Shown: positions 1-60,016, counted from the first letter of the stretch. The stretch: DNA of 64,000 nt from Candidatus Gottesmanbacteria bacterium (GCA_016186795.1 JACPKY010000002.1:925892-989891), one strand, 5' to 3'. The notes: generated by a model from the sequence alone, not told the origin. Numbers and translations: made by a program.

Positions 1-207
1 GACACCGAAGGATACGAAGAATTCCCCGCGTGAATCCCCATATTGTACCATATCGGATTATTGCCTCATACATATATGAAGAACATGAGGGTTGGAACCT
101 ACACGGTGATGATACTCCCAAAATACGGAAAAGATGCTTTGATGATTTTTGATACGTCGTAACTAAAGAAAGCACACTTTTTTGGAAAATCGAAAGAGGT
201 TTTTTCC

Positions 208-555
208 TCATGCCTTTTGTATTGAAGTAAACGTATTTTCCATTAAATTTTTTAATTCGCTTTTCATCTGTGTAAACGATGTATCTTTTGAAAATTTGTG
301 CACTCTTATACAGATATCTTTGTGATTTTGTGCCTGAAGATACTCGGTTCGTATTTCTTCCTCAAGAAAACGACGTATCTTGTTTCTGAAACTCGCACGT
401 TTATCAACTGATTTGGGAATAAGGATAACGAACCGAGGGGTGTTTCGATGAGACTCTTTAGAAATAACAGTAAGGTGCATCGTAGTTTTCTTCCGAGAAT
501 ATTTCTTCGAGTGGAAAAACTCAGGAGCTTTAATACGAAACAATTTTGGAAGCAT
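208..555 (-). CDS. rnpA: Ribonuclease P protein component
   Basis: 115-aa basic protein directly downstream of rpmH on the same strand. KSV..R..RNKIRR-type basic stretch typical of RnpA. Classical rpmH-rnpA pair divergent from dnaA. Confidence 0.6.
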
Positions 556-559
556 GAGG

Positions 560-667
560 TTAAATACTTTGTCGCTTTCTTCCTCGTGCGATCCTTCGTT
601 TAATTACCTTTCGACCGTTATGTGTTCTCATTCTTTGCAAAAACCCATGAACTCTCTGGCGTTTCAT
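560..667 (-). CDS. rpmH: 50S ribosomal protein L34 (35 aa; missing from the ORF track because it is under 60 aa)
   Basis: Manual reverse-strand translation gives [35 protein letters not shown], a good match to the L34 consensus (MKRTFQPS..KR.R.HGFRARM.T..GR.VL..RR.KGRK.L). The stop lies 4 nt before the rnpA start. Confidence 0.8.
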
Positions 668-780
668 TTTTTTGGGCTGATACGCTCGTTTTGGCATGCG
701 GGTATCATAGCATATTTTCCTTTTTTAGAAAACTGATCCGGTGGGTATACAGAATGTATTACTTCTGTATCCTTGACAAT

Positions 781-809
781 TGTGGATAACTTTCTTAGCA
801 TGTGGATAA
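781..809. promoter_or_regulatory. Two perfect DnaA boxes (TGTGGATAA, the reverse complement of TTATCCACA) at 781-789 and 801-809, overlapping a putative dnaA promoter (TTGACA at 774-779)
   Basis: Exact 9-mers read from the sequence. Their position in the rnpA/dnaA divergent intergenic region is typical of dnaA autoregulation and oriC. Confidence 0.6.
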
Positions 810-863
810 TTCACCCCCTCCGTAGTCTCGATGCAATCGGGACAAAGGAGGATCTATTATCTT

Positions 864-2195
864 ATGGACACTCAAACGCTTTGGCAAATCGTCCTTGCTG
901 ACCTTGAGGTGCAAGTGGGGAAAGTTATGTTCCAGACGTTTCTTTCTCAGACCAAACTTCTGGAATTATCTGATCAAACCGCAACAATCGGTTGTACTCA
1001 GCCATTCCTTTTAAGCCTCATTGAAAAACGGTATTATCCTCTTATTAAAAAAACGCTCGACTCCTATACCAAATTAGATACAACGCTTTTGTTTAAACCC
1101 ATTTCAGGACCTCCAAAAACAACCATCGATGGGCCTCTATTTCATGTAAAACCGCAGCAAAACATGTCCACGTCTCGCGTTAGGCTTCACCCAGAATACA
1201 CCTTTGAAAATTTCGCGGTTTCTTCTTCAAATCAGATGGCATACGCAGCAGCAACCGCGGTATCACAAAAACCAGCCGTATCGTATAATCCGCTCTTTCT
1301 CTATGGTGGGGTGGGCGTTGGAAAAACTCATCTTATGCAGGCAATTGCTCATATTATGATCAAAAACCGCTCTCAAACGAAACTCACGTACTGCACAGGT
1401 GAAGAATTCACCAATGAAATTATTGAAGCGATTGGAAACAAATCAACGGTTTCGTTTAAGAAAAAGTATCGAAATCTCAACCTTCTCCTTATTGACGATA
1501 TCCAATTTATTGCTGGAAAAAATGCCGTGCAGGAAGAGTTTTTCCATACGTTTAATGCAATTCAACAATCTGGCGGTCAAATCATTCTCACATCAGATAA
1601 ACCCCCTGAGGAAATACCTAGACTTGAGGCCCGTTTACAATCCCGTTTCGAAGGTGGGCTTAGTATCGATATTGGGCCTCCGGATTTTGAGCTTCGGACA
1701 GCAATCCTTCTTATTAAAGCGAAACAGCGAGATGTTGCGCTTCCGATTAATCTTGCAAAACTCATTGCAACAAGCGTTGAAAATCCTCGAAAACTTGAAG
1801 GCGTACTCGTCCGAGCTCTTACTGAATCGCAAACACAAGGTGTTCCTTTGGATGAGGATTTAATCAGATCAATACTTGGTAAAACCGCAAAGAAGGTAGA
1901 AAAAACTGCCGTTTCTCCGCAGAAGGCACTCCAGGTTGTTGCTTCATATTACCACCTTACACTCACTCAGCTTAAAGGAGCAAAAAGAGATCGTGCGGTT
2001 AGTCTCCCTCGACAAGTTTTATACTACATTCTTAGGTCAGAACTGAACGTACCACTTGTCGATATTGGAAATATTGTCGGCGGACGAGATCATACAACAA
2101 TTCTTTACGGTGTTAGAAAAATCTCAGATCTTCTACAGGTAAATAAAACAATCAATGGGGATATTTTAGGGATAAAGCAACAACTTCTTGAATAA
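864..2195 (+). CDS. dnaA: Chromosomal replication initiator DnaA
   Basis: Walker A GGVGVGKTHLMQAIAH, LLIDDIQF box, DnaA C-terminal DNA-binding helix-turn-helix. The ORF-track start is 831, but AAGGAGG at about 849-855 precedes the ATG at 864 (MDTQTLWQIV), so 864 is the preferred start. Confidence 0.93.
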   Translation: MDTQTLWQIVLADLEVQVGKVMFQTFLSQTKLLELSDQTATIGCTQPFLLSLIEKRYYPLIKKTLDSYTKLDTTLLFKPISGPPKTTIDGPLFHVKPQQNMSTSRVRLHPEYTFENFAVSSSNQMAYAAATAVSQKPAVSYNPLFLYGGVGVGKTHLMQAIAHIMIKNRSQTKLTYCTGEEFTNEIIEAIGNKSTVSFKKKYRNLNLLLIDDIQFIAGKNAVQEEFFHTFNAIQQSGGQIILTSDKPPEEIPRLEARLQSRFEGGLSIDIGPPDFELRTAILLIKAKQRDVALPINLAKLIATSVENPRKLEGVLVRALTESQTQGVPLDEDLIRSILGKTAKKVEKTAVSPQKALQVVASYYHLTLTQLKGAKRDRAVSLPRQVLYYILRSELNVPLVDIGNIVGGRDHTTILYGVRKISDLLQVNKTINGDILGIKQQLLE

Positions 2196-2372
2196 GTATG
2201 AATAGTATCAACTTATCCACATTTTCGTGGTAAATATCCCCAGAACTATCCACATCTATTGGGGGTCTTTGTACACATGATAAACAGATGGTTTTTCTCA
2301 TCCTTGACTGCTTTTTTGAAATTGCGTACACTTATCAACACTCTCTATAACTAATAATACTATTTACATCTT
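2196..2372. promoter_or_regulatory. dnaA-dnaN intergenic oriC-like segment with DnaA boxes TTATCCACA (2213-2221) and cTATCCACA (2246-2254), followed by an AT-rich stretch
   Basis: Box 9-mers read directly. AT-rich run 2330-2372 is a candidate DNA-unwinding element. Confidence 0.5.
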
Positions 2373-3482
2373 ATGCATTTCTTAGTACTGAAAGAAAATA
2401 TCCAAAAGATATTGACAATTGCAGGTAGAAATATTTCGAATAGACCACAACTTCCTATTCTTTCAAATATTCTTCTTAAAACAGAAAACGGAAAACTTAC
2501 CCTTGCAGTAACAAATCTCGAAATAGGGGTGATTTTCACTATCCCAGCAAAAATTGAAAAAGAAGGAGAAACAACCATTCCAGGGAAACTTCTGACCGAA
2601 TTCGTTTCACTTCTTTCAGCTGAAAAAATAGAGTTTTTATTGGAGGGGACAAATCTTCGCGTACTAACAAATAAAACAAAAGCGTCATTTTCAACAACTC
2701 CCCCAGCAGATTTTCCGCCGTTTCCGAAACCCCCAGAGATAAAAAATATGTTTTCATTTACAAAAATAAAAGACGCACTCACACATACAGTATTTGCAGC
2801 ATCACTTGACGAAGGAAGACCTGTTTTAACCGGAGTGAAAACTGTTGTTTCTAATGGGAAACTTACTCTCTCGGCAACCGACGGATACCGGTTATCGATG
2901 GAAAACGTTGATATTCCCGATAAAAAAGAAGAATTTACCCTGATACTTCCCTCCCAAACATTAACAGAAGTTATGCGTATTGCAGCTGATTTGAAAGTTG
3001 AGGATGTCGGATTTTCAATTATTGAAAATAAAAATCAAGCAGTGTTTACTTTTCCACAGGTTCATGTTTTTACTCGCCTTATTGATGGAGAATTTCCAAA
3101 CGTTGAGAAAATTATTCCAACCATGTTTAAAACAAAAGTGACGGTTGGGAGAGAGGAGCTTTTGCAATCGGTAAAAACAGCATCACTTTTTGCGCGTAGT
3201 GCTGCCAATATTGTGAAGGTAAAAGTTGAAAAAGAAGGTTTACGATTAAGCGCCGTAACTCCGCAGATTGGTGAGGATGAAGATTTCATTGAAACAAAGG
3301 TTGAGGGAGAGGAGGGAGAAATAGCGTTTAACTACCGGTTCCTTATGGATCTTCTCAATAATTTCCCCGAAGAAGAAGTGGTGTTTGAGATGTCTGGACC
3401 ACTTAATCCTGGGGTATTTAAACCCGCATCCGGAAAATCACCATTTCTTCATATTATCATGCCTGTCCGGATACAATCGTAA
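2373..3482 (+). CDS. dnaN: DNA polymerase III beta sliding clamp
   Basis: 369 aa, three-domain clamp architecture, typical N-terminus LTIAGRNISNRPQLPILSNILL, directly downstream of dnaA. Confidence 0.9.
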   Translation: MHFLVLKENIQKILTIAGRNISNRPQLPILSNILLKTENGKLTLAVTNLEIGVIFTIPAKIEKEGETTIPGKLLTEFVSLLSAEKIEFLLEGTNLRVLTNKTKASFSTTPPADFPPFPKPPEIKNMFSFTKIKDALTHTVFAASLDEGRPVLTGVKTVVSNGKLTLSATDGYRLSMENVDIPDKKEEFTLILPSQTLTEVMRIAADLKVEDVGFSIIENKNQAVFTFPQVHVFTRLIDGEFPNVEKIIPTMFKTKVTVGREELLQSVKTASLFARSAANIVKVKVEKEGLRLSAVTPQIGEDEDFIETKVEGEEGEIAFNYRFLMDLLNNFPEEEVVFEMSGPLNPGVFKPASGKSPFLHIIMPVRIQS

Positions 3483-3491
3483 CAACATTTC

Positions 3492-4949
3492 TCAACGAAG
3501 CGTTACTTGTTGATTTGGCGAAAGATAGGTTTGGGTAAACACCGTCCACTCGGCCTCTTTTGGTGAAGTACGAAGTAAAAATGCGCTTTCAAACGTATTC
3601 CAGTTTGAGGATTGGACTGAGGAGATAATTTCTGGGTCAGAGTACGTGTTGCTACTAAAAAGAGACGTTCCTCCTATAACAAGGAGAAATGGGAGAAGAA
3701 CAGCTCCGCTAACAATTCCACCAATGACAAACTTTAACACTTGATCACTAAGACCTCCTGATAAGAAACTAAGAATATCTTTCGCAAGGAGTGCTTCTCC
3801 TAATCCAGGAATCGCTTTTCCAGCAAGATTTGCAAGCTTGCCTAATTTCCCACCAAGACGTCCAAGTTTTGACAACATTGAGCCTTCTTTTCCAAGCCCA
3901 AGGAAAGAGCCTACTCTCTGACCAGCCTCTCTGAAAGCACCGCCGAGGCCTGACTGCGAGATTCCAGATGAGATTGGGTTTATAAATGAGGATATTCGAG
4001 ATTGAATATTTGCTATGAAATCCGACCATCCTTTTTGTAGATTGGCGATAAAAGGGTTTTTTGTAGGTGCTGGACGTGCCACCGGAGGTGGATGAGCGGT
4101 TGGTGCTGGATGAGTAGTGGTTGTCGGTTGTCCGCCTTGGGGTTGTTGTGGTTGATTGGGGGGCGGAGGACCCTTTTTTGGTGATGGATATTCTCGCTTC
4201 AATGTTTCTTTCACCTTTAGTCTTGCCATGTCCATTTTCGCGTTTTCAACGTTTCTGACGTTTTGTGTTTTGGCAACAAACTGAGAACCTTTTTCTTCAT
4301 CCAATGTTTTTACTCGTTCAGCAACAAGCTTCTCTTTCTCTTTTTTGGGCAGATTTTTTGTCGTTGGGTCTTTTTCAATACCATCGACAACTTGTTTTTG
4401 GAGGAATTGTTTTCTTGCTTCAGTTCGCATCGCTTCTTGGAGAGAAATCCCTTCTTCTTTTGCGGTTTTTAGTGCACTTTCTGTTACTTTTTTCATTTGC
4501 TCATCTGAGAATCCATAGACTGACCTCATTCCTTCTGAATAGGATGGAGCAGATGTTTTTCGAATATTGTCTTTTTCGCTATCAAAAATAGTAATCGTTT
4601 TTAGTGCTCGTTTTGCTTTAGCAACTTCTTCCTTTTTATTTTTACCTCGCTGAAGGATTCGTCCGTATCGATCGTGAAGTTGGACGCCGCGAATGACTCG
4701 TTGTCGATATAGTGGATCTTTGAGAAGTTTTTCAGGGTCAATATTTTCAAGAAGTTTTCCTGCGTCGTGAATTTCTAGTCCATGGGTTGCAGCTCCAAAT
4801 GAGGTGGCTAGAAGAGCGAGACCTGAAATTTTGTTTTGCTCACCAAACCCCGATTGCATTGCCTCAATTTGTGCAATTTCCCAGTCAGTTAAGCCTTTAT
4901 ACTCTTCCTGTTCTTGTTCTGACTGTGCTTGTGGAGGTGTTGCAGACAT
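3492..4949 (-). CDS. Hypothetical C-terminally membrane-anchored protein (coiled-coil N-terminal domain, PPPP/QPQ linker, Gly-rich region, one TM helix); last gene of the T4SS-like operon
   Basis: Composition and hydrophobic C-terminal segment (VIGGIVSGAVLLPFLLVIGG). Co-directional and contiguous with the VirB4-like gene. No recognisable catalytic motif. Confidence 0.45.
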   Translation of the reverse strand: MSATPPQAQSEQEQEEYKGLTDWEIAQIEAMQSGFGEQNKISGLALLATSFGAATHGLEIHDAGKLLENIDPEKLLKDPLYRQRVIRGVQLHDRYGRILQRGKNKKEEVAKAKRALKTITIFDSEKDNIRKTSAPSYSEGMRSVYGFSDEQMKKVTESALKTAKEEGISLQEAMRTEARKQFLQKQVVDGIEKDPTTKNLPKKEKEKLVAERVKTLDEEKGSQFVAKTQNVRNVENAKMDMARLKVKETLKREYPSPKKGPPPPNQPQQPQGGQPTTTTHPAPTAHPPPVARPAPTKNPFIANLQKGWSDFIANIQSRISSFINPISSGISQSGLGGAFREAGQRVGSFLGLGKEGSMLSKLGRLGGKLGKLANLAGKAIPGLGEALLAKDILSFLSGGLSDQVLKFVIGGIVSGAVLLPFLLVIGGTSLFSSNTYSDPEIISSVQSSNWNTFESAFLLRTSPKEAEWTVFTQTYLSPNQQVTLR

Positions 4950-5003
4950 AAGGAATCTTTTTGTTTATTTTATTATACGCTGAAATACTAGAGATGCTCA
5001 AAC

Positions 5004-7070
5004 TTATGGAGTCGATGGTGTTGGAGAGGTTATAGGTGCAGGTGACGCTTGACTTGGTTCTGGTTTAGTTGGCGGTGGAGATTGTGGGAATTGGACGTTA
5101 CTTTCAAGCGTTACAGATGATTGTAACGATTGAGGTTCAGAAGTTTGTTGAGTTTCATAGGATGTTTCTTGAGTTTCCTGAGGTTTGGATGTAGCAAGAT
5201 GATGTTCCTCAGATGAAGCAATGACTTGTATAGCAGCATGGGCAGTTCCGGCAAAGAAGAGTCCTTCTCCGACGTTTGCAGAAAGCAAGAAATGCTTTTC
5301 ACCACTTGAGAGGTAGAATACCTCAGCAAGTTTATCTATCGCTGCAGACGATTGTTTAAGGAGGATTTGTAAACTGGAATTGGTGATGATTGCTTTCCCA
5401 TGATCGGTTGAGAGAAAATCTTCCACATCCTGAGTGATGGTTGTTACCCCCAAGAAATATTTTCTTGCCCGTTTGGCAATGCCATAGAGAAAGGTTGCAG
5501 AGTCTGGGTGTTTCATAAGATACCACGCCTCATCAACAACGAGGATACGCTTCTTAACCGACCGTTTTATCTTGGTCCAGATAGAGTCTAGAATAATATA
5601 CATTGCAATTGGACGAAGCTCTTCCTCAAGTTCACGGATGGAAAAAACAGTTAAACGATTTTTCAAGTTCAGATTGGACTGTTGGTTAAATATTCCCGCA
5701 AGGCTTCCTTTGACGAATTTTTCCAACCGTTCCGCTAAATGTTTTGCCGTTTCTTCCTCCATTCCAAGGAGTGTTTTATATAAATCTTCAATAAGGGGCG
5801 GTTCATTTTTTTGCGTTGCCGGATCTGGAGTAATACCTTTCTGTTTGTAGGTAAGGACGAGCGCTCGATCAAGGAGAGCATCTTCCGCAGGGGTCAGTTG
5901 CCCCATGACGACTCGCATCAGGCCGTGGAGGGAAAGAATTTTTAGTCCTAATTCATTTTCTCCCTCCTCAAAAATTCCCGAAAGGTCGAAAGGGTTAATT
6001 TTTACAGGAGAAGTAAAGGAAAATTCAATAAGTTCTCCACCAAGAGCGCGTGTTAGCTCCTTGTATTCACCTTCAGGATCGATAATAAACACCTCTGTTC
6101 CAAAAAGAAGATGCCGCATCGTTTCAAGTTTGACAAGAAAACTTTTTCCGCCACCAGATTTACCAAAGACTACTGAGTTTGAGTTTTCCAAACTAAAGCG
6201 GTCAAAAATAACCAAACTTCCATCATGTTCGTTAATACCGTATAAAATTCCTTCGTTGGCAGTAAGAGATGCTGTTGTAAAGGGAAACGTCGTTGCAAGA
6301 GATGTAGTATCCATGTTTCTGGAAATCCCAAGCTTGTCAACCCCCATGGGGAGTGTTGAGTGGAAACCATCTTCTTGGGAAAGTGTTGCGTGTTTTGGGA
6401 TAATGAGGAGCGCTCCAAGACTTGATTCAACTTCCTTTGAAATGCGGCTTAATTCCTCCATTGATTCTCCTGGAATAGTGACATAGAGACTAAATTGGAA
6501 AAAACGTTCAGCGCCTTTTGCAAGTTGCGCCTGAAGCGCAAGGGCATCATCAAGGGCTACTTGAACCGAAGGATCAACAACTTTCCCCCTCTTCATGTCG
6601 GTTTGGACCGTTGCCTCCATCTCGGCAATTTTCCGCTTCAGATCTTCAAGGATAACTTTTGACTCCGTCGGATAACAAAACATTGAGATAAAAAGGGAAT
6701 GGTCAAACGAGAGAATCGGATGGAGCCAATTTGCTGAAACAAACCGCGGATAGCCCGCGACAAAAAGAGTGCGGTAATAACTATTATTTATTCGAATATT
6801 GTCAAAATCTACCTCAACAAGAGATGGAGCAATGAGGTCTTTAATATTCACCATTCCTTTGGCGAGTGTTTTTGCTGCGTCACGGAGTTTCGTATTCTGC
6901 GCTTGTCCTACCGTTCCTACGACGTGACTTACAGCGTGAGGAGTAGTAGAGTGTGAAACAGGTGGGACATGTGAAGTAATAGGTTTTTGTACAGATCCAC
7001 TCTGAATTGGATGCGGCAGTTGTGTTGTTTGAGTCGGTTGTGGTTTTTTGGAGAAAAACGGCAAATTCAT
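5004..7070 (-). CDS. VirB4/TraE/PrgJ-like type IV secretion (conjugation) ATPase
   Basis: Walker A VVFGKSGGGKSFLVK, Walker B ILVVDEAW, length and domain order of VirB4/CagE/TrbE-family ATPases. About 110-aa Pro/His/Thr/Ser-rich N-terminal leader. Confidence 0.8.
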   Translation of the reverse strand: MNLPFFSKKPQPTQTTQLPHPIQSGSVQKPITSHVPPVSHSTTPHAVSHVVGTVGQAQNTKLRDAAKTLAKGMVNIKDLIAPSLVEVDFDNIRINNSYYRTLFVAGYPRFVSANWLHPILSFDHSLFISMFCYPTESKVILEDLKRKIAEMEATVQTDMKRGKVVDPSVQVALDDALALQAQLAKGAERFFQFSLYVTIPGESMEELSRISKEVESSLGALLIIPKHATLSQEDGFHSTLPMGVDKLGISRNMDTTSLATTFPFTTASLTANEGILYGINEHDGSLVIFDRFSLENSNSVVFGKSGGGKSFLVKLETMRHLLFGTEVFIIDPEGEYKELTRALGGELIEFSFTSPVKINPFDLSGIFEEGENELGLKILSLHGLMRVVMGQLTPAEDALLDRALVLTYKQKGITPDPATQKNEPPLIEDLYKTLLGMEEETAKHLAERLEKFVKGSLAGIFNQQSNLNLKNRLTVFSIRELEEELRPIAMYIILDSIWTKIKRSVKKRILVVDEAWYLMKHPDSATFLYGIAKRARKYFLGVTTITQDVEDFLSTDHGKAIITNSSLQILLKQSSAAIDKLAEVFYLSSGEKHFLLSANVGEGLFFAGTAHAAIQVIASSEEHHLATSKPQETQETSYETQQTSEPQSLQSSVTLESNVQFPQSPPPTKPEPSQASPAPITSPTPSTP

Positions 7071-7747
7071 TATGTAATCCTTCCTAATCCTTCAACGAGC
7101 GGTTTGCCGTATCCTGAAATTTCTCCCAATTTTTCACCTGTCATTGTTGGGTTGTAGAGGTTGTAGAAGATCTCGACAAGCTCTTGTGTCGTAAGTTGTC
7201 TTCCTCGTAGCCCAAACCGATTCAACTGTCGTAGTAAATGATCACGTTTCGGCAAAAGTGATGTTTTTGCACGAGAAAGGATATAGTCTTTGGAAAAAGG
7301 AAGTTTTTTCTTCTTTCCAAATGCCCCTTTTACTCCCAGTTCTAAACTTGAGAAGGAGATGACGATATAAAATCTTTTTTCCAATACTCGGTTTTCTTTG
7401 ACAATTGAGAGGATAAATTCCTTATACCGACGAAGCCTTTCTTTCAAAATAACGTCAACTTGAGTTTCTTCGACCTGAGTTATCAGCTCAATATACGAAG
7501 AAATATCCATCCGCTTGGAAAGAATGACAATTTGAAGAGGAAAAGAGAGAGAGTTCAAAAGCGATGCATAGGCGTAAATAAGCGCATCCTGCTCATCTTC
7601 AGAAAGAAGGCCAAAGTTTACCGCAGTTGTTTCGACAAGAAGCGCCGCGGATCCATCTTGAAGTATAAGAATATCATCGGCGATATCCTCTATTCCTAAA
7701 AAATCTTGTGTTGTTGCTCGAATTGGACTGGAGGTTGGTTGTGCCAT
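7070..7747 (-). CDS. VirB4 N-terminal-domain-like protein (possible split-off N-terminal module of the conjugative ATPase)
   Basis: DFLGIEDIADDILILQDGSAALLVETTAVNFGLLSEDEQDALIYAYASLLNSLSFPLQIVILSKR resembles the conserved N-terminal region of Gram-positive VirB4 homologues. Its stop overlaps the ATPase start (ATGA). Confidence 0.45.
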   Translation of the reverse strand: MAQPTSSPIRATTQDFLGIEDIADDILILQDGSAALLVETTAVNFGLLSEDEQDALIYAYASLLNSLSFPLQIVILSKRMDISSYIELITQVEETQVDVILKERLRRYKEFILSIVKENRVLEKRFYIVISFSSLELGVKGAFGKKKKLPFSKDYILSRAKTSLLPKRDHLLRQLNRFGLRGRQLTTQELVEIFYNLYNPTMTGEKLGEISGYGKPLVEGLGRIT

Positions 7748-7815
7748 ATATATATTATGAAAACTCGCTACACAAAACTCAAATGGCTGGTTATAAATTG
7801 CGGATTTGAGATTTC

Positions 7816-9123
7816 TTACGAATTTACGCTCCCAAATAGTTCTTTTGTGAGTTTTTCGCGCATGAGTTCACGTTCACCCTTTGCCAGGATTTCAATTGGA
7901 GGGAAAATGTTCCCCGAAAGAGTAATTTCAGCGATATCAAAAAAGTACCGCTTCAACGGATCTTCCATTTCCAAATGATATACGCCGTTTGACAATGGGG
8001 TTGCAGTAGAAAACTGGCCAAGCTTATTGGTTTTAAGTGCCCGAAGCGGTGTTCCGTTTTTGTCTTTAATGGTGACAATAATATTGGGAAGGAATTTTTT
8101 CTGCGGATCCTGAATGATCCCCACAATCATATTTGGGTATTGAGGGAAAGTCGCACCGATTTCTTTGGCTGTTGACGTTTGGGCGATCGTTTGGATTGTT
8201 GGTGGTTTTACCTCTTTCAACGCTGTTGGTGTCACAACTTCTGGCTGTTTGAGTTTTGCCAATTCTTCATGGAGACGTTTCAGTTCATTTTCTAGCGCCT
8301 CTTTCTCTTTTGCAATTTGATCCCACTTTTTTTGATAATTTTCCTTCCCCACCATAGGTGCAGTGTTTGTTAGAGGTGGTGAAACAGGATGTGTTTGGGC
8401 AATTGGTGTGGTACCGGCAGATGCAGGGACAGGAGGTTCTTGTGAAGGTTTTTGAGGTGTGGTATTTGGCGATGGCGCAATTGTGCTCTTTTGGGGTGAT
8501 GGACCGATAGGTACGTTTGATTGCAGTTTTTGACTAGGTGCTGAAAGAATTGTTTTGGGGACAGCATGTATTTGGTGAGGTACGGTGTGTGGTCGGCTAG
8601 CAATAACTGTATGAGTGCTGGAAGTGTTGGTATGAGGTTGTGGACCAAAAAGAGAAAGCGTATTTTCAAGATATTTTTTTTCAGCAAGGTTGAGATTTTC
8701 GTGTGGTTTTGAAGGGACAGTTGCCAGATACGCGGCTAGTTTTGATTTCGCTTCATTATGCTGAATGAGGTGTGTTGTGTTTGTGACCTGAATTCTGACA
8801 ACCGATGGTTGAGAAAACATATCGGCAATGATACTTTCCTTATGCCAGAGGTATTGTGTTGGAGAGAAGATGCTTCGTATGAAAGCCAAAAGCCATTTAT
8901 CAAGCGGTCGTTCCTGAATTGGGAGAAACGCAAATGCGACACCGCAAAACCCAAACAGGGCAGCGAGGGGAATATTTATAATCTGTGGAAGCGGTGAGAG
9001 ACGAAAGGTGACATACGCGATGAATGCGCCGCCGGCAAGATATCCGAATTGCCGAAGCGTCATGTCACCGATGAGGTGAAACTCAAAACTTGAAATGTTT
9101 CGAGGGACAGGATGTTGCTCCAT
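7816..9123 (-). CDS. PrgI-family (VirB3-like) membrane protein with a long C-terminal extension (Pro-rich linker, coiled coil, beta-sandwich-like domain)
   Basis: N-terminus FEFHLIGDMTLRQFGYLAGGAFIAYVTF...PLDKWLLAFIRSIF with two hydrophobic helices matches the PrgI-family pattern. First gene of the operon with VirB4. Confidence 0.5.
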   Translation of the reverse strand: MEQHPVPRNISSFEFHLIGDMTLRQFGYLAGGAFIAYVTFRLSPLPQIINIPLAALFGFCGVAFAFLPIQERPLDKWLLAFIRSIFSPTQYLWHKESIIADMFSQPSVVRIQVTNTTHLIQHNEAKSKLAAYLATVPSKPHENLNLAEKKYLENTLSLFGPQPHTNTSSTHTVIASRPHTVPHQIHAVPKTILSAPSQKLQSNVPIGPSPQKSTIAPSPNTTPQKPSQEPPVPASAGTTPIAQTHPVSPPLTNTAPMVGKENYQKKWDQIAKEKEALENELKRLHEELAKLKQPEVVTPTALKEVKPPTIQTIAQTSTAKEIGATFPQYPNMIVGIIQDPQKKFLPNIIVTIKDKNGTPLRALKTNKLGQFSTATPLSNGVYHLEMEDPLKRYFFDIAEITLSGNIFPPIEILAKGERELMREKLTKELFGSVNS

Positions 9124-12200: not shown

Positions 12201-13251
12201 AGACAAGTGGGATAGCCATCTCTTTACCCCGCTTGGAGAAGAAATCATTATTTCTAAGGGAAAGTACTGGAAGAGAAAATCGGCAGATGTTACGGTATGG
12301 AATATGGGCAACATTTCTGATCTTTTTTCTAAGGATAGAATGGTGGGAGATGTACCAATTGGGAGAGAGAAAGAAGAAGCAAAAGTTGGTAACAGTGCGT
12401 CTGATGACCAGTTTCAAAAACTTTCAAAGAGACTCATGGAGGAACTGCGGAAATTCTTCCGTCCTGAACTTCTGAACCGTTTTGATGAAGTCGTTGTTTT
12501 CCGTCCGCTAACCCGAGATCACATGCTGGAGATTGTCGGACTTCAGGTGAAGCTACTTTCAAAACTCCTTACCGAGCAAAATATTGCAATAGAAGTCAGC
12601 CACGACGCTTCGGTGTATCTATCCAAAGTAGGGTACGATCAAGTATTTGGCGCAAGACCTTTGAGAAGAATAATTCAACGCTTGGTTGAAAATCCTATTT
12701 CCTCGCTTCTTATTAAAGGCGAATTAGCAAGTGGGGGTCGCGTGCATGTGACATATGAAGGTGACCAACTTCAGTTTCAGATCCAAAAAATAGAAATGAA
12801 AAATGCTCAAACTCCTTCTCCGACAGTTGTCGATGAAAAGCGGCAACCTCTCCAAACCAGTCAACCGACACTTCAATCTCCGAAGCCGCTGGAGGAGAAA
12901 GTGTCCTACGGTTGCCAAAACTGCGGGCATACATGGGAAGAAGCAAAAAGTACGCATAGTTTGGTCTGCCCTGACTGCGGGAGTGAACTTATTTCACAAA
13001 AGGCCGAGTCTAGTACCTCTCAAGGGCCAGAACCATCAAAAGAAGAGAAACAAAATCCCCTTGAGATGTACTATCAACCGACAGATCAGGCAAAGAATGA
13101 CGTCTCACCTACACCCGTTTCCAAAGATTCCTCCTCAAGCGGCGTCTCAGGTTGCAGATACTCCCCCTTTTACGCGTTCCTTTCCCAAAGAGAGAAGAAA
13201 AAGGAGACTAAGGTATACAAGGCTGTTAAAACCGGTCATGAGAAAAAGTGA
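9283..13251 (+). CDS. ClpC/ClpB-like double-ring AAA+ unfoldase with an atypical roughly 300-aa insertion in D2 and a C-terminal C4 zinc ribbon
   Basis: Clp N-domain, D1 Walker [16 protein letters not shown] and Walker B LFVDEMH, short ClpC-like middle domain, D2 Walker [16 protein letters not shown], sensor region [15 protein letters not shown]. Alternative start at 9574 (M of MDVLSRL); the upstream 97 codons carry a GNPP tandem repeat. Confidence 0.85.
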
Positions 13252-13872
13252 AAGGGCAAAAAACTGGAATACTTCATCTGTCACAAGAAGAAACGTATTG
13301 GGGAAAACGACTCTTAATCCTGTTTGAGAAAGAAAAAGGAAGAGAATGATAATGATTGGTCCGGCAATAATAAGGCTCTCAACATCTTTTTTACTTGAAA
13401 ACATTGTCATCGATGTAACAAATAATAGATAACAAAGAATAGGTAACAGAACGAAAGAATACTGATTGGTTGTTATCCAGGAGAGGTTCACAAAAAATAT
13501 TTTTCCAAGAAAATAAATGAATGACAATCCCATAAGTATTGGTGCAAGACCAACAATTGCGTGTCTAAAAGGATCAACTTTTGCAATCATGAGCTTCCCA
13601 GCCCGAATCGTTCCATCTTTTTCGATTGTGGGAAAGATAGAAAGTTCGCCAGTTGGTACAAAAAGGATAAGAGCTACAAAAAAATGAGACAGCTCATGGA
13701 TGATGGTTCCCGGCAAAAGCACTATCGTGACAGCAAAAAGAGCCGCAGTTTTACTTCGTGTAGCAAGATATGCAAGAAGGTAGATAAAAGTAGATATTTT
13801 TTTAGAAAGGACAAAAAGGCAAAGTAGGAAGAGTATCGAAAGTATAATGTAGAAATAGAAAGGCAACGACAT
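13147..13872 (-). CDS. Polytopic membrane protein with HExxH motif (IIHELSHFF) in a TM helix; putative intramembrane zinc metalloprotease (site-2-protease-like)
   Basis: 6-7 hydrophobic segments with HELSH inside a helix. No clear second LDG motif, so family assignment is tentative. Confidence 0.4.
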
Positions 13873-15521
13873 TAACGTTCTCTTTCCTGAGTCTCCCGAG
13901 GTCCACCTGTGTCAAAGACGCTCAGTCCCATCGGGATCATCCCAATACCCATGAGAATTCCTAAGAAAGCCCCATCTGAGAGTCCCCGCTGCTTGGCCAT
14001 CTCTGCAATCTGAGCAGGAGTGACACTAAGGAGTCTTCTTAATGTGCCAATCTGCTTGTTATCAATATTAGCTCCCTGTGCAATTGTGGCTGTTCGATCG
14101 GTAACAAACTTAATGGGATTTTTCATAACATCTCTATCGAGACCTAGCTCAGTCTGGAAGAAAGAGGTTACTCCTGCGAGTTTATGACCGCGGAGAAGAG
14201 CTCGAACAAATCCCACTTCATGGGGATTTAATCCACCTTGATGAGATGCGCCAAGAAGGAGACCCTCGATACGTTCGGAAAGATTAGGATCTCGCGGATC
14301 TATCGAGTCAAGAGCGTGCTGGATACCATTCATGTACAAGAGGGTTGATTCCATCCGGATTTCACCGTTTTCGATCCGCTGGAGTGTTTGAGTGGCAAAC
14401 GCTTGCTCGGCAGGTGTATCGTCATAGAGGGCGCGAATGAGAATTTCCGTCTGTTGGTGGAGCGGGTCGTTTCCTTCGGTTTGGTAATAGAGAATATTTT
14501 CATTCATCTCGGCTCCGAGTTGGGTGATAGTTTCAACGGATAAATGCGCAGCGTGTCCTTGTGGAGAAAGTATAGCTTGCGTTGCACGAGTTACTCTGGC
14601 TGCAAAATTATCAATATTTCCGCTTCCGGATGTAAGGGCGTTTTCCAAGACGGAAGTCCAGAGCCCTACGACAAAAAGTTGCTGGTCTCCAGCTGGATCT
14701 TTCCCAAGTCCGGCGTAATATTCAGTAACAGCCTTGATTGCATGGTATGCTGTTGCCTTTACTTTTTCTCCCCGAGCTTTTACTGCTTCAGCCGATTGGG
14801 CTTCTGGAGTAGGTGGAGTAGCTGCCTTGTCTTCTCCTCCTTGGATCATAAATCGCATTTTCACTTTTGCGTTCGGATCCTCATCCGGTTTTAATCCACA
14901 GAGTTTCTGTTTTGCAGCAAGACGTCTGGCAAATCGTGTATGGGGGTCTACTTTTGCATCATCCCGGAATTGTTCCAAAGGAAACATCCCTTTGGCTTCA
15001 TTATCAACCATGTCATCCCATGCTCGGAGAGACATCGGTTTTGTAACCGTTCCATCGGCAAGAGTGACAACAACTTCTGTGCCGTCAAGGAGGCCACTGC
15101 GTGTTTCAACCGAAGAATCATGATGAGCTTTTTGCTCTGGAATTGCACTTCCGTGCGTTTGTGCTGCAATCCATTCGAGATTATCGATTGATGCAGGGTA
15201 GACGGATGATTGTAATAGTACACGATCATCATCAGTTGGTTTCTCCTTTTTCCTAAACGTGTTCATTGTGCTTTGGGCCTGTTCCATATTTTCCTCATGA
15301 AGCTCAAGAAGCTTTGCGAGGCCATCTCTTTCTGTATCTTGGGCTGTTGATAGTTTTTTTCCTAATTCAGCTGCACTTTCTGCTCGGTATGGTTCACCTT
15401 TAAAAAGAAGAAAACTTGCCTCTCTGGTAAGGTGCTGGCAATCTGTGGGTACAAGCGGTTTAACGGGAAAAGATTCTGGTTTTAATGTGACGATTTCTAG
15501 TGGAGCAGGAGCTGCTTGCAT
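13872..15521 (-). CDS. Hypothetical 549-aa protein with C-terminal TM anchor
   Basis: Long ORF with coding-like composition, GC-elevated, divergent from the giant repeat protein. No recognised domain. Confidence 0.45.
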   Translation of the reverse strand: MQAAPAPLEIVTLKPESFPVKPLVPTDCQHLTREASFLLFKGEPYRAESAAELGKKLSTAQDTERDGLAKLLELHEENMEQAQSTMNTFRKKEKPTDDDRVLLQSSVYPASIDNLEWIAAQTHGSAIPEQKAHHDSSVETRSGLLDGTEVVVTLADGTVTKPMSLRAWDDMVDNEAKGMFPLEQFRDDAKVDPHTRFARRLAAKQKLCGLKPDEDPNAKVKMRFMIQGGEDKAATPPTPEAQSAEAVKARGEKVKATAYHAIKAVTEYYAGLGKDPAGDQQLFVVGLWTSVLENALTSGSGNIDNFAARVTRATQAILSPQGHAAHLSVETITQLGAEMNENILYYQTEGNDPLHQQTEILIRALYDDTPAEQAFATQTLQRIENGEIRMESTLLYMNGIQHALDSIDPRDPNLSERIEGLLLGASHQGGLNPHEVGFVRALLRGHKLAGVTSFFQTELGLDRDVMKNPIKFVTDRTATIAQGANIDNKQIGTLRRLLSVTPAQIAEMAKQRGLSDGAFLGILMGIGMIPMGLSVFDTGGPRETQERER

Positions 15522-15611: not shown

Positions 15612-18600
15612 ATGAGTTCTTCTTCTGCCGATGCTATTCATCACCAACCATTTCCTGCAACCGTTGCTGAATCGGTTCCTTCAACTCCTGTTAATCAGGT
15701 TAATCAGGCTGGTTGGCAAACTGCCGAACCTCAACGACCTCAATTTGGTGCATATGAGAGAGGACGTATTGTTCCAGGAGCCAATCGGGAAGCCGGAGTT
15801 ACTCCCCATACCGTTGTTGAGCTTGGTCTTGATACCGAACTTGAGCTTTTTGATTCTCTCGAGGAAATAGTAAGTTTCCTTGATAAGTCCGATAATAAAG
15901 ATGCTCTTTCTCTCCTCTCAGAGGTTATGAAGGAAAAAATGGTTGATTTAAGAGACAGGGCTGCCGCTCTTTCCTTGGAGAGGAAAGATATCGAGGAACG
16001 GAAAGCAATTGAGGAAGAGTATGAAGAGGCTGTTAGACAAACAGCAAGACAACGGTTAGGTTTTAACTATGAGGCGAGAAATCGGACAACACGAGATGAT
16101 AAGTTGAAAAAACTGAATAAAAAGATTGAGAGGCGAAGAAAGGCAATTGAGGAATACAACAAAACGAGACCTGGAGAGACTCCTACACCTGGTGAAAAAC
16201 CAAAAAAAGTACCAAGAGAGCTTGAAGAGCTTATCAGTGATCATAATCTTGGATTAAGCGATTTAACTCCTGAAGACCTCAAGACCCGATTAGAAGCATA
16301 CCTTAAAAAAGACAGAAAGCCTTTGCAGATATTTGATAACCTCACCGATGTCATGCAAGCGTATTCCTTCCTTGAGAGTGCGGAGAAGATTGTTGCACTT
16401 CAAGCAGGACAAGATATTACCGATGGTGGGAGAAGACCTGTTGAGTTTGATTTTTCGGATGCAACAATTAATCGGGTAGCTCAAGCCGGGGTTCCAAACA
16501 CAACGGTGCAAGCACTCCGCGACATTGGGAGAAGAATCCGGATTGGAGATGTATTCGGAGTACAAGAGCTAATTGCAGGATTGTCGGTTGGGACCGTTGA
16601 AGCTCTCATGAATGCGCATAATTTTTGGCCTGCTCCAGGTGATGCTGCCCAAGCCGGTGCAGCGTTTGCCTTGGGAGTTGGGAGTATGCTATTTGTACGA
16701 GCAGTAGGTCGAAGAATGAACCATTGGCGCCTATCTTTTCCTCCGGAACGAGCTGAACAGAGAACTCAATATACGCTACAGTTTCACTTCATTCAACCTC
16801 CGCCCGGGGATGGAGGGAATCCTTTGCGACGAATGTACGGTGGTGATGCACGCCGAGCCGAACAATTCCTACAAGCAATTGATAATGTTCGTGTCGACAT
16901 TGCTAATAAACTAAAAGTCCATCCAGGACAGCTGGAGGGGTGGCTAAATTTAAGTAGTGCTGCATTAGGTGAGAGCGTTGAGGGGATGGAATTTCCTCAT
17001 CGAGTTGTCCTTGCTAAGAATATCGAACAAATATTGGCTCAAGAACATCGGAATGCGACTGGTGGCCATATACCGCTTGAGGAGTTATCAGCTGAGGAGC
17101 AGATTGAGGTTATTGAACGGGCGTTTGATGGAGTTGCACTTGCCATTGGCGGGGAAGCTATGGATGATGTAACTAAAAATGCGGCGATACGAAGAATGAT
17201 GGGAGAAGTTAATTGGGCTCAGCGGAGAAACGTTCTTGCAACTCATGTTGCAGAAATCCGGGCAGGAACACGCGTCTACCATGCAAGCGTGACTCCTCAC
17301 GCTTTAGAAGAAGCAAGGACACAGTTTGAGGCAGCAGAAAAGCAGGAAGCGCGACAATCTCAGGGGAAAGACGCATACGGAGCAAAATATACTGAGCTTC
17401 AAAATCAGTTGAGAACCTTGGAAACAGCGCGAATTGAGCTTGAAAATATTTCGACAATCAACGGTCATATTACAAGAGACGTTACAGTGAAGGGGAGAAA
17501 AGTTCATGAAGATGCAAGCGGAGAGATAGGGGTACTTGAGGCTGAAAAAACAAGGATTGATGGAGAAATTACGAAGCTTAAGGGTGAAATTGATGCAACA
17601 AATGCAAATGGACTGGAGGGTCAGTATAAACAAGCAAAACGCCGCTATGAAACGCTCCATGGGAAAGTTGAGGCTCTAAAAAGTAAGAAGCAAGCGGCGC
17701 AAGCAGAGATTGATACCCTTCAACGGGGAAGAGATAGAGCGAAAGCTGCAAAAATTGCTCAGTGGGAATCTATTCGAGATCAGGCAGAGCAGAATTTAAC
17801 AACTGCGCCATCTGGGCAAAAGACTCTGGAGGAACAGGAAGATGATGCATATTTAGCCTTTGTGCCACTCAAAGATCAGTATGAGCCAAAAACGGCAGAA
17901 GTTGGACGATTACAACAAAGGCAGAATGCAATCCCTGGTGAGATTCAAGCATTTGAGAGGGCAATTGCAGAGAAAGAGAAACTCTATCGAGTAGCTCAAT
18001 TGAATTATACTCTTGCCCAAAAAGAAGTACTTACTATTCTTCAGGATTTTGGATACAAATACACACCTGCTCAGTTGAGGAGTAGCTCACTTCGACTCCC
18101 CACGTCGCAAATGATTACTGACAAGTATACAGAACTCCATGTCGAGTATCAGGTGAAACAGAATCGTCTTACGGAGTTGGTAAGGCTTGCTGAGGCGGGA
18201 GTTAGTGAAGAAGATCTTCGGATTGCAACGCTTATTGAAACACTCTCAGGTGTTGTTGGTTCAGATCGTCTTAATAGTTTTATGCAGCAGCTTCTTTCCC
18301 GAGGGATAAAGTTGGAGGATCTTGCCAACACACAAAACAACGAGGGATATCACCTCATGTTAAAGTTCTTTTTCGGTGAGGATGCACTCACTCAAGGGAA
18401 GGACGGGAAGTATGCTCGAGCAACGACACTTCTAAGTAAAGCTCGATTATGTGATGAAGCTTTCAAAATCTGGCGCATCGATGATCGGGCATCAGGCGAT
18501 GGGTTTTTTGCAGGAGATGATGAAGGTCTACAACTATATCAGAATGCTCGTTTTATTTTTGAAACCAATAGAAGACTCACTCAGGAAGTTTTTAACCTTG

Positions 18601-59500: not shown

Positions 59501-60016
59501 GTAGCTGGTGCAACATATCAGATTGATACACCTGTTGGGACTGCGTTTGTGACAATTAATACTGATGCCAACAATCAACCACTTGAAGTGTTTATAAATG
59601 TCGGTAAAGCAGGTTCTGATGTAACAGCGATGGCAGAGGCTTTGGGTAGAATTGTTTCACTTATGCTTCGCATGCAGTCAAGCGTTCCCGCATCAGAAAG
59701 AGCACGGCAAGTATTCAATCAGCTGATTGGTATTGGAGGATCAAAAGCGCTCGGATTCGGAGATAAGAGGGTGCGGTCACTTCCCGATGCTGTTGCGAAA
59801 GTTTTGGCAATGCACTATGGTTTTAAATTTAAAAATGGCAACGGAAATGGTCATCAACAAGCTGAGGGAAATCCACAAAGCGTACCAGTCTTAACACAGC
59901 AGTCACTTCCCGTAACGAAGATTGATTACGATCTTTGTCCATCATGCGGAGAGGCAGCTTTAGCCTACGAGGAAGGCTGCAAAAAGTGCTACAGTTGCGG
60001 ATACTCTGAGTGTTAA
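56585..60016 (+). CDS. nrdJ: Class II (adenosylcobalamin-dependent) ribonucleotide reductase NrdJ, monomeric type, interrupted by an intein
   Basis: RNR barrel motifs. NPC|GE active-site motif split by the intein. C-terminal CxxC...CxxC tail. Extein about 784 aa. Confidence 0.85.
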   Translation: MKLSGIRQTVFLDRYSLKDEKGNPVEKTPEQMWKRVAHGISQVEKSSVQKYWAEKFESIMQDFKFVPGGRILSGAGTGYNVTFYNCFVIPSPKDSREGILDTLKQMVEIMARGGGVGINLSSLRPRGARVKKVNGFSSGPCNWAELFSVATKDIIQQGGTRRGALMLMLWDWHPDVEEFITVKRDLSRINGANLSVCVSDKFMEAVKKDDDWQLYFPDTNDREYDTKWEGYMDEWLKMGKKVKVFKTIKARKLWDLICEAAWASAEPGVVFMERYNKWSNNWYFNKINCVNPCVTGDTLVSTTNGLQSMRKLYEIGKPFRVVVDGKNYLSTHVKHTGVKPVYRLRTREGYEMKLTNDHKVITVNGKKEADELVSGDKILLSHGGSFGVTGNIEEGNVLGWLVGDGTMKKDVATLFFYHNEKQELAPQFASMVGKMVEGEGVTQRMYPIFPQYIEKENKAVVESVRLWRIAYRYGITHENKYIVPEQVFGGSEEFQRGFLQGLFSSDGTVIGTPNKGVSVRLTSVSYSLLIGVQRLLLNLGILSKIYKKRRTESNRLLPDGRGGKKSYYCQAYHELVISKVSLIRFAALINFLQDNKKNKLASLLSLYGRGPYKESFMATFSALEKDGVEEVFDITVADIHRFSANGLIVSNCGEEGLPAWGVCNLCSINLAALVKDGKIDYKELSDIAKVGVRFQDDIIDADSYVFPQIRQVQQNGERRIGLGTMGLGDALIKMKLRYGSPESLREIDKIYKTIRDAAYESSVEIAKEKSPFREFDAKKHLKGHFIKRLPKKTLTAIKKWGVRNSVLLQQAPTGSTSLLAGVSSGIEPVYEFSFVRRDRLGEHTLYHPLYEEWKKSHPNDPVPPYFVSANDLIPEDHVRVQGAIQKYVDASISKTVNAPNNHTIEDVRKLYTLAYELGCKGVTYMREGSRPGVLERIPEKKDEKESVQKEKATPNGNGHLPVREEIMPRPMMVAGATYQIDTPVGTAFVTINTDANNQPLEVFINVGKAGSDVTAMAEALGRIVSLMLRMQSSVPASERARQVFNQLIGIGGSKALGFGDKRVRSLPDAVAKVLAMHYGFKFKNGNGNGHQQAEGNPQSVPVLTQQSLPVTKIDYDLCPSCGEAALAYEEGCKKCYSCGYSEC
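57461..58537 (+). mobile_element. Intein (359 aa) with LAGLIDADG homing-endonuclease domain inserted at the NrdJ catalytic cysteine motif
   Basis: Starts with Cys (CVTGDTLV), block B TNDH, LAGLIDADG motifs LGWLVGDGT and FLQGLFSSDG, ends ...LIVSN followed by extein +1 Cys (CGEEGL). Confidence 0.8.

Follow-up and report, generated by a model that had tools for sequence, protein, structure and literature searches.

What is a type IV secretion system (T4SS) with few of its recognised parts doing immediately beside a chromosomal origin of replication? The question is raised by a cluster of four genes in a 64,000-nucleotide stretch of DNA (hereafter, the window) from Candidatus Gottesmanbacteria bacterium (GCA_016186795.1 JACPKY010000002.1:925892-989891). 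A preliminary description of this DNA had proposed four co-directional minus-strand genes at positions 3492-9123, encoding a PrgI-like VirB3 analogue, a VirB4 N-terminal-domain-like protein, a VirB4 ATPase and a 485-aa tail-anchored protein, and all four open reading frames (ORFs) were found at these coordinates. Our analysis indicates that the locus is very probably the chromosomal, vertically inherited T4SS core of Candidatus Gottesmanbacteria, which belong to the Microgenomatia within the Patescibacteria, and a representative of the Patescibacteria T4SS that derives from monoderm MPF_FATA conjugation machinery. Far from being a new kind of system, the locus is an ordinary case of an already published one with two lineage-specific oddities, namely, an extended PrgI protein and a hydrolase-less fourth gene, both modest variants. 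The Patescibacteria T4SS itself is among the few machines that have been experimentally tied to the epibiotic lifestyle of this large and mostly uncultured radiation.

The 688-aa protein is a VirB4 ATPase, an assignment on which the preliminary description had staked its proposal. It matches the NCBIfam VirB4-like CD1110 family with 405 bits (cut-off 325; model positions 173-730 of 752) and scores lower with the VirB4 of mycoplasma integrative conjugative elements (ICEs; 265 bits), F-type TraC (195 bits) and VirB4_CagE (136 bits). Its residues 268-622 match the VirB4 C-terminal domain in PDB entry 4AG5 (E = 2.7e-43), and the Walker A and B motifs and catalytic columns are invariant among relatives. 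The protein is devoid of the first ~170 model positions, and both of its ends (positions 5004-5190 and 6864-7070, minus strand) are low-complexity tails rich in Pro, Ser, Thr and Gln. In the NCBI annotation, VirB4 starts at an internal methionine (616 aa); most homologues are 640-690 aa long. VirB4 is 66-89% identical across Microgenomatia. Among the best 120 of the 7,986 VirB4 homologues, the source names are all from the candidate phyla radiation (CPR; 66-100% identity), and the best 80 genome loci are Microgenomatia-type, some under wrong labels of metagenome-assembled genomes. The closest non-CPR VirB4 in the plasmid collection, from a Pontibacillus megaplasmid, is 37.7% identical. For both VirB4 and PrgI, the best homologues carry the names Gottesmanbacteria, Microgenomates or Patescibacteria, and proteins identical to VirB4, PrgI and the 485-aa protein are also encoded on several Logan contigs from runs SRR12113384-SRR12113430. 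Another Gottesmanbacteria VirB4 homologue (P0098) is 1176 aa long and contains intein splicing and LAGLIDADG domains (PF14890 and PF14528), an insertion that fits a highly conserved, essential gene.

The 225-aa protein encoded upstream of VirB4 resembles the N-terminal domain of VirB4, as had been suggested. It matches NCBIfam TrsD/TraD (E = 9e-7) and the N-termini of VirB4 models (positions 129-235 of 894, E = 3.6e-9; and 15-123 of 752). On the TrsD/TraD subfamily NF041427 it reaches 28.8 bits against a cut-off of 200, which denotes remote homology only; the assignment is backed by gene position, by a precomputed annotation as PF26593 (TraC-like) and by a BLAST match to pSK41 TrsD (21% identity, E = 1.6e-5). 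The corresponding Pontibacillus protein is 27% identical (E = 2e-25), and a PDB sequence search with the TrsD-like protein returned nothing meaningful. Together, the 225-aa and 688-aa proteins amount to one canonical monoderm VirB4, split in two.

The same split and the same gene order are found in MPF_FATA conjugation systems. The succession of VirB3-like protein, TrsD, VirB4 and bitopic membrane protein corresponds to trsC-trsD-trsE-trsF(-trsG) in pSK41, pGO1 and pIP501, and the VirB4 is 27% identical to TrsE of pSK41 (E = 3e-47). By contrast, the CagC-type TrsB, the CHAP hydrolase TrsG, the VirB8-like TrsH, the VirD4-like TrsK, the VirB6/TrbL-like TrsL and the relaxases of pSK41 have no counterpart here. 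A closer counterpart is a relaxase-less T4SS-like cluster located near flagellar and chemotaxis genes on the megaplasmid of Pontibacillus sp. ALD_SL1 (NZ_CP062975, 351801-361354; L088), a replicon typed as non-mobilizable. Its order is pilin-like protein, 8-transmembrane VirB6-like protein, short PrgI (116 aa), TrsD-like protein, VirB4 and a 1050-aa M23 peptidase. As in our locus, TrsD-like and PrgI genes lie directly upstream of virB4, and the 37.7% identity of the VirB4 proteins extends over 83% of the length; the pilin-like, 8-transmembrane and M23 proteins (the latter with N-terminal transmembrane helices) set the Pontibacillus cluster apart.

Chromosomal systems of this type have been described in Patescibacteria. 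Of 3,035 Patescibacteria genomes surveyed by Quinonero-Coronel et al. (2025, PMC12102498), 2,417 encode VirB4, and these proteins make up a monophyletic clade within MPF_FATA. According to the same study, TrsD is the most abundant companion of VirB4, PrgI-type VirB3 homologues are also present, VirB6 is scarce in Microgenomatia, and dnaA, dnaN and rnpA are enriched beside virB4 in Microgenomatia and Paceibacteria, which the authors attribute to gene dosage. Pilins are frequent but not universal neighbours: of 1948 assemblies with pilin genes, 1135 have them close to virB4 (PMC12102498). Our locus shares with this system the monoderm-type VirB4 beside TrsD-like and PrgI/VirB3 proteins, the chromosomal location near dnaA and dnaN, the lack of a relaxase or type IV coupling protein (T4CP) beside virB4 and the lack of a recognisable VirB6. 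It differs in that a VirB2-like pilin array, VirB6, VirB8 and a hydrolase are all missing from the 64 kb, and in the size and architecture of PrgI. Thus, the view that modules of this kind beside the origin are poorly understood does not hold, since their distribution, components and proximity to dnaA/dnaN were published in 2025 (PMC12102498) and their essentiality in 2023 (PMC10633639). The epithet 'minimal' is apt for the genes clustered here; other parts, including pilins and the T4CP, are often encoded elsewhere in such genomes (PMC12102498).

To place the cluster among its relatives, we scanned one genome per species, 80 loci in total, for features within 10 kb of virB4. The loci belong to Gottesman-, Roizman-, Curtiss-, Woese-, Beckwith-, Shapiro-, Chisholm- and Woykebacteria and WWE3. 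Besides virB4 (80/80), the trsD gene is present in 78 loci and a long prgI, directly upstream of trsD-virB4, in 77. The dnaA and dnaN genes are found in 59 and 58 loci, respectively, and in 49 of them dnaN is convergent and downstream of virB4; among the 22 loci where dnaN was not found, 15 have truncated flanks. The conserved module beside dnaN that the preliminary description had suggested looking for in related genomes is therefore real. The frequency of prgI is at odds with the published 22.6% of virB4-associated VirB3 homologues in Microgenomatia (PMC12102498), a gap that could reflect paralogues elsewhere or the limits of profiles on the long form of PrgI. In the closest available relative (L087), identity is highest for TrsD and VirB4 (88% each), followed by DnaN (80%), DnaA (76%), PrgI (67%) and the product of the fourth gene (28%). 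VirB4 and TrsD also exceed DnaA and DnaN in the Gottesmanbacteria loci L007-L019. Constraint on the TrsD/VirB4 pair thus surpasses that on the initiator of replication and on the sliding clamp, an observation that we did not find reported in PMC12102498 or PMC10633639. Such conservation rules out a decaying element and speaks for a core role in the cell and for a housekeeping-level function beyond Saccharibacteria. In three loci of one Microgenomatia sublineage (L030, positions ~4700-7300; L031, 11800-14500; L038, 11700-14300), three genes follow virB4. Their products are a T4SS_pilin (PF18895) protein, a small one with three transmembrane helices and a 476-522-aa protein with six or seven such helices, a VirB6-like candidate; no dnaN is present within 10 kb. 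This arrangement indicates that cluster content and origin proximity vary within the class.

These data bear directly on the possibility that the four genes are the decayed remnant of an ICE or plasmid stranded beside dnaN, non-functional or drifting. Such a remnant would account for the presence of just four of the ~10-12 genes of monoderm conjugative T4SSs, for the rapid divergence of the fourth gene and for the absence of the hydrolase domain that relatives possess. However, the same core occupies the same position in 77-80 of the 80 species-level genomes from many Microgenomatia lineages, its reading frames and Walker motifs are intact, its catalytic columns are invariant, and the cluster shows no compositional anomaly (GC content of 0.41-0.44, same as the surroundings), tRNA, repeat or integrase. 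We therefore regard decay as scarcely credible and effectively already refuted by conservation.

The location next to the chromosomal origin is well defined. The end of the 485-aa gene and the stop codon of the convergent dnaN (2373-3482) are 9 nt apart; the immediate adjacency noted earlier is correct, the distance being 9 rather than 10 nt. Perfect DnaA boxes occur only three times in the whole window, all flanking dnaA, and the cumulative GC skew has its minimum at positions 1-4000 and rises steadily afterwards. Together, the DnaA boxes and the GC-skew minimum place the cluster 1-3 kb from oriC, beside the chromosomal origin as the preliminary description had it. Both dnaA and rnpA precede dnaN, and contigs of the same species carry on with yidD, yidC and jag on the far side. 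The strand of the cluster implies transcription head-on to the rightward replication fork. Within the cluster, the trsD stop and virB4 start codons share one base (TAATG), and the other two spacers measure 68 and 54 nt. The latter contains a promoter-like site, the best consensus match of the region (10/12) and merely a lead, given that the site totals in promoter and terminator scans were not above shuffled expectation. Coordinates of the features are collected in Table 1.

Table 1. Features of the T4SS locus and of neighbouring genes, in window coordinates
Feature	Position (nt)	Strand	Remarks
DnaA boxes, perfect TTATCCACA	781-789, 801-809, 2213-2221		Flank dnaA
dnaA	831-2195		Upstream of dnaN
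485-aa bitopic membrane protein gene	3492-4949	-	ORF call
Single transmembrane helix of the 485-aa protein	3660-3743	-	Residues 403-430
VirB4 ATPase gene, 688 aa	5004-7070	-	ORF call
Promoter-like site TTGAGC-18-TATAAT	4972-5001	-	In the 54-nt spacer ahead of the 485-aa gene
Walker B, VVDEAW	5523-5540	-	VirB4 motif
Walker A, GKSGGGKS	6141-6164	-	VirB4 motif
TrsD-like gene, 225 aa	7070-7747	-	ORF call
PrgI/VirB3-like gene, 435 aa	7816-9123	-	ORF call; first of the cluster
C-terminal beta-sandwich of PrgI, prealbumin/CnaB/carboxypeptidase-regulatory-like	7879-8136	-	Residues 330-415; AlphaFold2 pLDDT 90-94
Transmembrane hairpin of PrgI, two helices	8926-9057	-	Residues 23-66; AlphaFold2 helices 23-42 and 47-66, pLDDT ~96
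ClpC/ClpB-like double AAA+ protein, 1322 aa	9283-13251	+	Divergent from the cluster, 159-nt spacer
241-aa protein	13147-13872	-	Seven predicted transmembrane helices; HELSH (HExxH) motif in membrane region
549-aa protein	13872-15521	-	Single C-terminal transmembrane helix (~residue 517), like the 485-aa protein
Giant 1739-aa protein	15612-20831	+	Coiled-coil middle; ~nine C-terminal ~45-residue repeats (LPDxR...G-x-P-x-E-F-V-D-x-F-Y)
Ribonucleotide reductase large subunit	56585-60016	+	With intein, LAGLIDADG homing-endonuclease domain

Equally informative is what the surroundings of the cluster do not contain. Pfam scans of essentially all window ORFs of at least 135 aa revealed no relaxase, T4CP, VirB6, T4SS pilin (PF18895 or any other pilin) or integrase, which, pilins apart, agrees with the preliminary description, and neither VirB8 nor a VirB1-like hydrolase was matched in the window, VirB8-like folds not having been searched by structure. 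The 10-kb flanking regions on contigs of the same species likewise contained no relaxase or coupling protein. The polytopic proteins of the window are MFS, FTR1, DUF4153, CvpA and an HExxH protein. Housekeeping genes fill the remainder of the window, among them those for two class A penicillin-binding proteins, MurB, ribosomal protein L25, IMPDH, GuaA, adenosine deaminase, an intein-containing ribonucleotide reductase and D-Tyr-tRNA deacylase; a nucleoside deoxyribosyltransferase-like protein is encoded there too. The window has no tRNA genes and no att-like flanking repeats beyond matches of chance size. An ICE was considered and ruled out by the synteny, conservation and composition of the locus and by the lack of tRNA, repeats and mobility genes; this agrees with the earlier statement that the cluster does not look like a classical ICE.

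The ancestry in conjugative MPF_FATA systems and the pSK41-like gene order would also be compatible with genuine conjugation or chromosome transfer that relies on an unrecognised relaxase and an origin-proximal oriT. The authors of the survey allow for 'very different relaxases yet to be found', and Patescibacteria commonly encode VirD4 homologues at other places in the genome (PMC12102498). Yet no relaxase family was detected in the 64 kb, and the survey recorded only 109 relaxases in the 3,035 genomes, 15 of them near virB4; in addition, the VirB4 phylogeny points to vertical inheritance with rare exchange between classes, and the T4CP was not essential in Ca. Southlakia epibionticum although the T4SS was (PMC12102498). 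We consider DNA transfer by conjugation very unlikely.

A host-interaction role of the locus is suggested by the missing relaxase and coupling protein together with the essentiality of a homologous system. The T4SS of Ca. S. epibionticum (SEML1_0006-0019), which has no recognisable relaxase and coupling protein, was shown by transposon sequencing to be essential for epibiotic growth (Wang et al. 2023, PMC10633639), and a 2025 FEMS review speculates that the T4SS and pilus form a conduit for exchange with the host (PMC12857230). By analogy with VirB3-VirB4 in solved systems, PrgI would anchor the TrsD/VirB4 ATPase assembly at the cytoplasmic membrane. The assembly would in turn energise a translocon, of which the channel, pilins and possibly the coupling protein may be encoded elsewhere in the genome or be too divergent to recognise. 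Most likely, such a system does not conjugate DNA and would instead pass proteins or other molecules between host and ultrasmall cell.

Alternatively, the ATPase could power DNA uptake, as ComB does in Helicobacter and Ced in Sulfolobales, and so feed a cell unable to make nucleotides. The lack of a relaxase or coupling protein nearby is compatible with uptake, genes for competence and recombination are found together with the T4SS in the ABY1 class (PMC12102498), and the window is rich in genes of nucleotide salvage (adenosine deaminase, IMPDH, GuaA, nucleoside deoxyribosyltransferase-like protein and ribonucleotide reductase). The ATPase also matches the DNA-import ATPase CedB weakly (E = 7e-16). 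But the score is 57.9 bits for CedB (cut-off 700) and 21 bits for CedD, versus 405 bits for the conjugative VirB4 family, and no partner families of the ComB or CedA type were detected. Furthermore, deletion of comEC in Ca. S. epibionticum abolishes competence and not viability, whereas the T4SS is essential (PMC12857230), indicating that the essential role of the T4SS in this organism is not ComEC-dependent transformation. Uptake of DNA thus appears improbable, and a chromosomal T4SS core involved in exchange with the host is the interpretation that we favour.

The first of the two oddities of the locus is its PrgI protein. The preliminary description was right about the family (Pfam PF12666, 41.8 bits, cut-off 27; residues 5-91, nt 8851-9111), and the PrgI match recurs in 70 of 70 aligned homologues, but a length of 435 aa is about four times that of a usual VirB3. 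The domain, the transmembrane hairpin, a helix at residues 73-86 and the position beside virB4 are all traits of the PrgI family, and only the size exceeds the norm of ~100-130 aa. The protein is a domain-fusion variant of PrgI with an added extension of ~340 residues. This extension is absent from the Pontibacillus homologue and from pSK41 TrsC (135 aa), neither do the published descriptions of the Patescibacteria T4SS mention such an architecture, as far as we could find (PMC12102498, PMC10633639). A tblastn search with the 435-aa protein against 72,556 plasmids gave no match.

We modelled the protein with AlphaFold2 from a 70-sequence alignment, and the model is confident in the hairpin and in a C-terminal beta-sandwich (Table 1; pLDDT, predicted local distance difference test). 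After the hairpin come a short helix of the kind usual in VirB3 (residues 73-86), a further pair of helices (116-158), a disordered stretch rich in Pro, Ser and Thr (~160-255) and a coiled-coil helix (261-291). In a Foldseek search of the PDB, the sandwich matched CnaB2 (8bdw, E = 1.6e-5, target TM-score of 0.72), as well as the transthyretin-like domains of carboxypeptidases D, N and M, the B domains of SdrD and Gram-positive pilins (BcpA). Consistently, Pfam CarboxypepD_reg is detected at E <= 0.01 in 46 of the 70 homologues. The N-terminal PrgI domain and the C-terminal sandwich are both kept in at least 71 of the 80 loci, separated by linkers of 75-626 aa, and none of 73 PrgI homologues has an additional transmembrane helix.

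On which side of the membrane the extension lies can be predicted from the hairpin. The loop contains no Lys or Arg, the flanks are positively charged, and VirB3 proteins have been described with both termini in the cytoplasm (PMC12857230); for these reasons the extension is predicted to be cytoplasmic, possibly a docking module. Low-complexity tails are present in VirB4 and in the ClpC-like protein encoded next to the cluster as well, so this type of composition is no marker of extracellular location here. In the linker of PrgI itself, the low-complexity sequence is rich in Pro, Ser, Thr and Gln (8360-8650, minus strand), and the N-terminus of the ClpC-like protein is similar. If the prediction is correct, the sandwich could act as a cytoplasmic docking module, and an extended VirB3 with a conserved, folded extra domain is a testable candidate for a docking site.

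The second oddity is the gene that follows virB4. The 485-aa protein begins with an acidic stretch, continues with ~250 aa of charged, helical sequence and ends with a Pro-rich linker, a Gly-rich amphipathic stretch, a transmembrane helix and a tail. Its description as tail-anchored captures the single C-terminal transmembrane helix, but the term fits loosely, since the chain runs on for 55 residues beyond the helix. The tail carries two W-x-x-F-(E/T) motifs, and across the family tails of 55-110 residues have two W-x-x-F-E-K-x-Y-L-like motifs. The protein matches nothing in Pfam, NCBIfam or PDB, no hydrolase domain of any kind was found in the Pfam and PDB searches, and a PDB search with the family profile produced nothing meaningful. 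A word-indexed homologue search retrieved only the protein itself, an exhaustive phmmer search of 1.84 billion representatives retrieved only 33 clusters, which with five exceptions are 414-552 aa long, and tblastn against the 72,556 plasmids found no match. Eleven Gottesmanbacteria loci have a gene of the same architecture at this position, as does L087, where it has diverged to the 28% identity given above against 88% for VirB4.

In other Microgenomatia, the gene after virB4 encodes a protein of 780-1420 aa with one to nine predicted transmembrane helices and, usually, a C-terminal peptidoglycan-hydrolase domain. The latter is Peptidase_M23 in L021, L041, L048 and L035, Peptidase_M74 in L058, CHAP in L062, with L036 narrowly missing the Pfam cut-off for this domain, and, in L025, a weakly matched SLT domain. 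We read this slot as that of a membrane-anchored VirB1-type wall-hydrolase subunit (compare PrgK, TraG of pIP501 and TrsG) in the sister lineages and in Pontibacillus, whereas this Gottesmanbacteria clade has in the same slot a protein that lacks the hydrolase and evolves extremely fast. The slot is thus modular, with M23, M74 and CHAP domains swapped between lineages and lost here. We did not find the hydrolase slot or its hydrolase-less replacement described in PMC12102498 or PMC10633639. In pSK41, the bitopic membrane protein TrsF precedes the CHAP hydrolase TrsG; TrsF was tried as a homologue of the 485-aa protein and rejected, as the two have no sequence similarity and are positional analogues only.

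Whether the 485-aa protein is related to the longer proteins was assessed with a hidden Markov model (HMM) of 39 sequences of its family. Among 8811 ORFs, the best matches outside the family were those in L058 (2.4e-10), L062 (1.5e-6) and L025 (1e-3), all three of them positional counterparts after virB4, and two reciprocal phmmer matches agree. The HMM matches are weak and cover the linker and transmembrane region. By contrast, a profile-profile comparison of the family with the longer post-virB4 proteins is unsupportive at 13.8% probability, and split N- and C-terminal comparisons yielded nothing. Given these results, we call the relationship positional with weak HMM support, homology not being established. 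The 485-aa protein is possibly the surviving membrane anchor of a hydrolase-bearing protein.

Several points weigh against the interpretation of the locus as a T4SS core that serves host interaction. First, any known translocon needs more than these four genes, and no VirB6, VirB8-like protein, pilin or hydrolase is encoded in the window. Second, membership of VirB4 in the Patescibacteria clade was judged from nearest neighbours rather than from a tree and is to that extent provisional. Third, the function is extrapolated to Microgenomatia from one Saccharibacterium. Fourth, the best structural matches of the PrgI sandwich are mostly extracellular adhesin and pilin domains, and its cytoplasmic placement is a prediction. 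Finally, the putative homology between the 485-aa protein and the hydrolase proteins rests on a compositionally biased segment, Pro/Gly-rich with a transmembrane helix, and the AlphaFold2 model of the 485-aa protein, made from a single sequence, has a pLDDT of 51 and was unusable, so it was left out of the fold search.

The two oddities could be joined in a bolder scheme, to which we assign a small chance. In Gottesmanbacteria the T4SS would have been pared down to an ATPase platform, with the sandwich of PrgI, tethered in the cytoplasm by a flexible arm of 75-626 residues, serving as a receptor for substrates or partners in place of the coupling protein, and at the same time the hydrolase would have been replaced by a rapidly diversifying membrane protein whose short, exposed W-x-x-F-E tail tracks host specificity. 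Both traits would set the system apart from all T4SSs described so far. Alternatively, the VirB3 hairpin might be inverted, making the sandwich a surface-exposed, adhesin-like tip.

The genes beyond the cluster include several unusual proteins. The ClpC-like protein has an insertion of ~350 residues with four repeats of ~45 residues (I/LSPTGxEIVT..G.YW.K...W..G.ISEYFA) and a C-terminal CxxC...CxxC zinc-ribbon-like motif, and its gene adjoins the cluster in nine Gottesmanbacteria loci. The gene for the 241-aa protein is syntenic with it in nine loci and is also present in L064. Neither the 241-aa nor the 549-aa protein matches Pfam or NCBIfam. No signal peptide, transmembrane helix or Pfam domain was found in the giant 1739-aa protein, and BLAST detected its homologues in two of the 80 loci (L013 and L064), the 10-kb flanks rarely reaching that far. 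The suggestion in the preliminary description that this protein could be a substrate of the module is neither favoured nor disfavoured by these results. In L064, a homologue of the 126-aa gene once more comes after the gene for the 1739-aa homologue.

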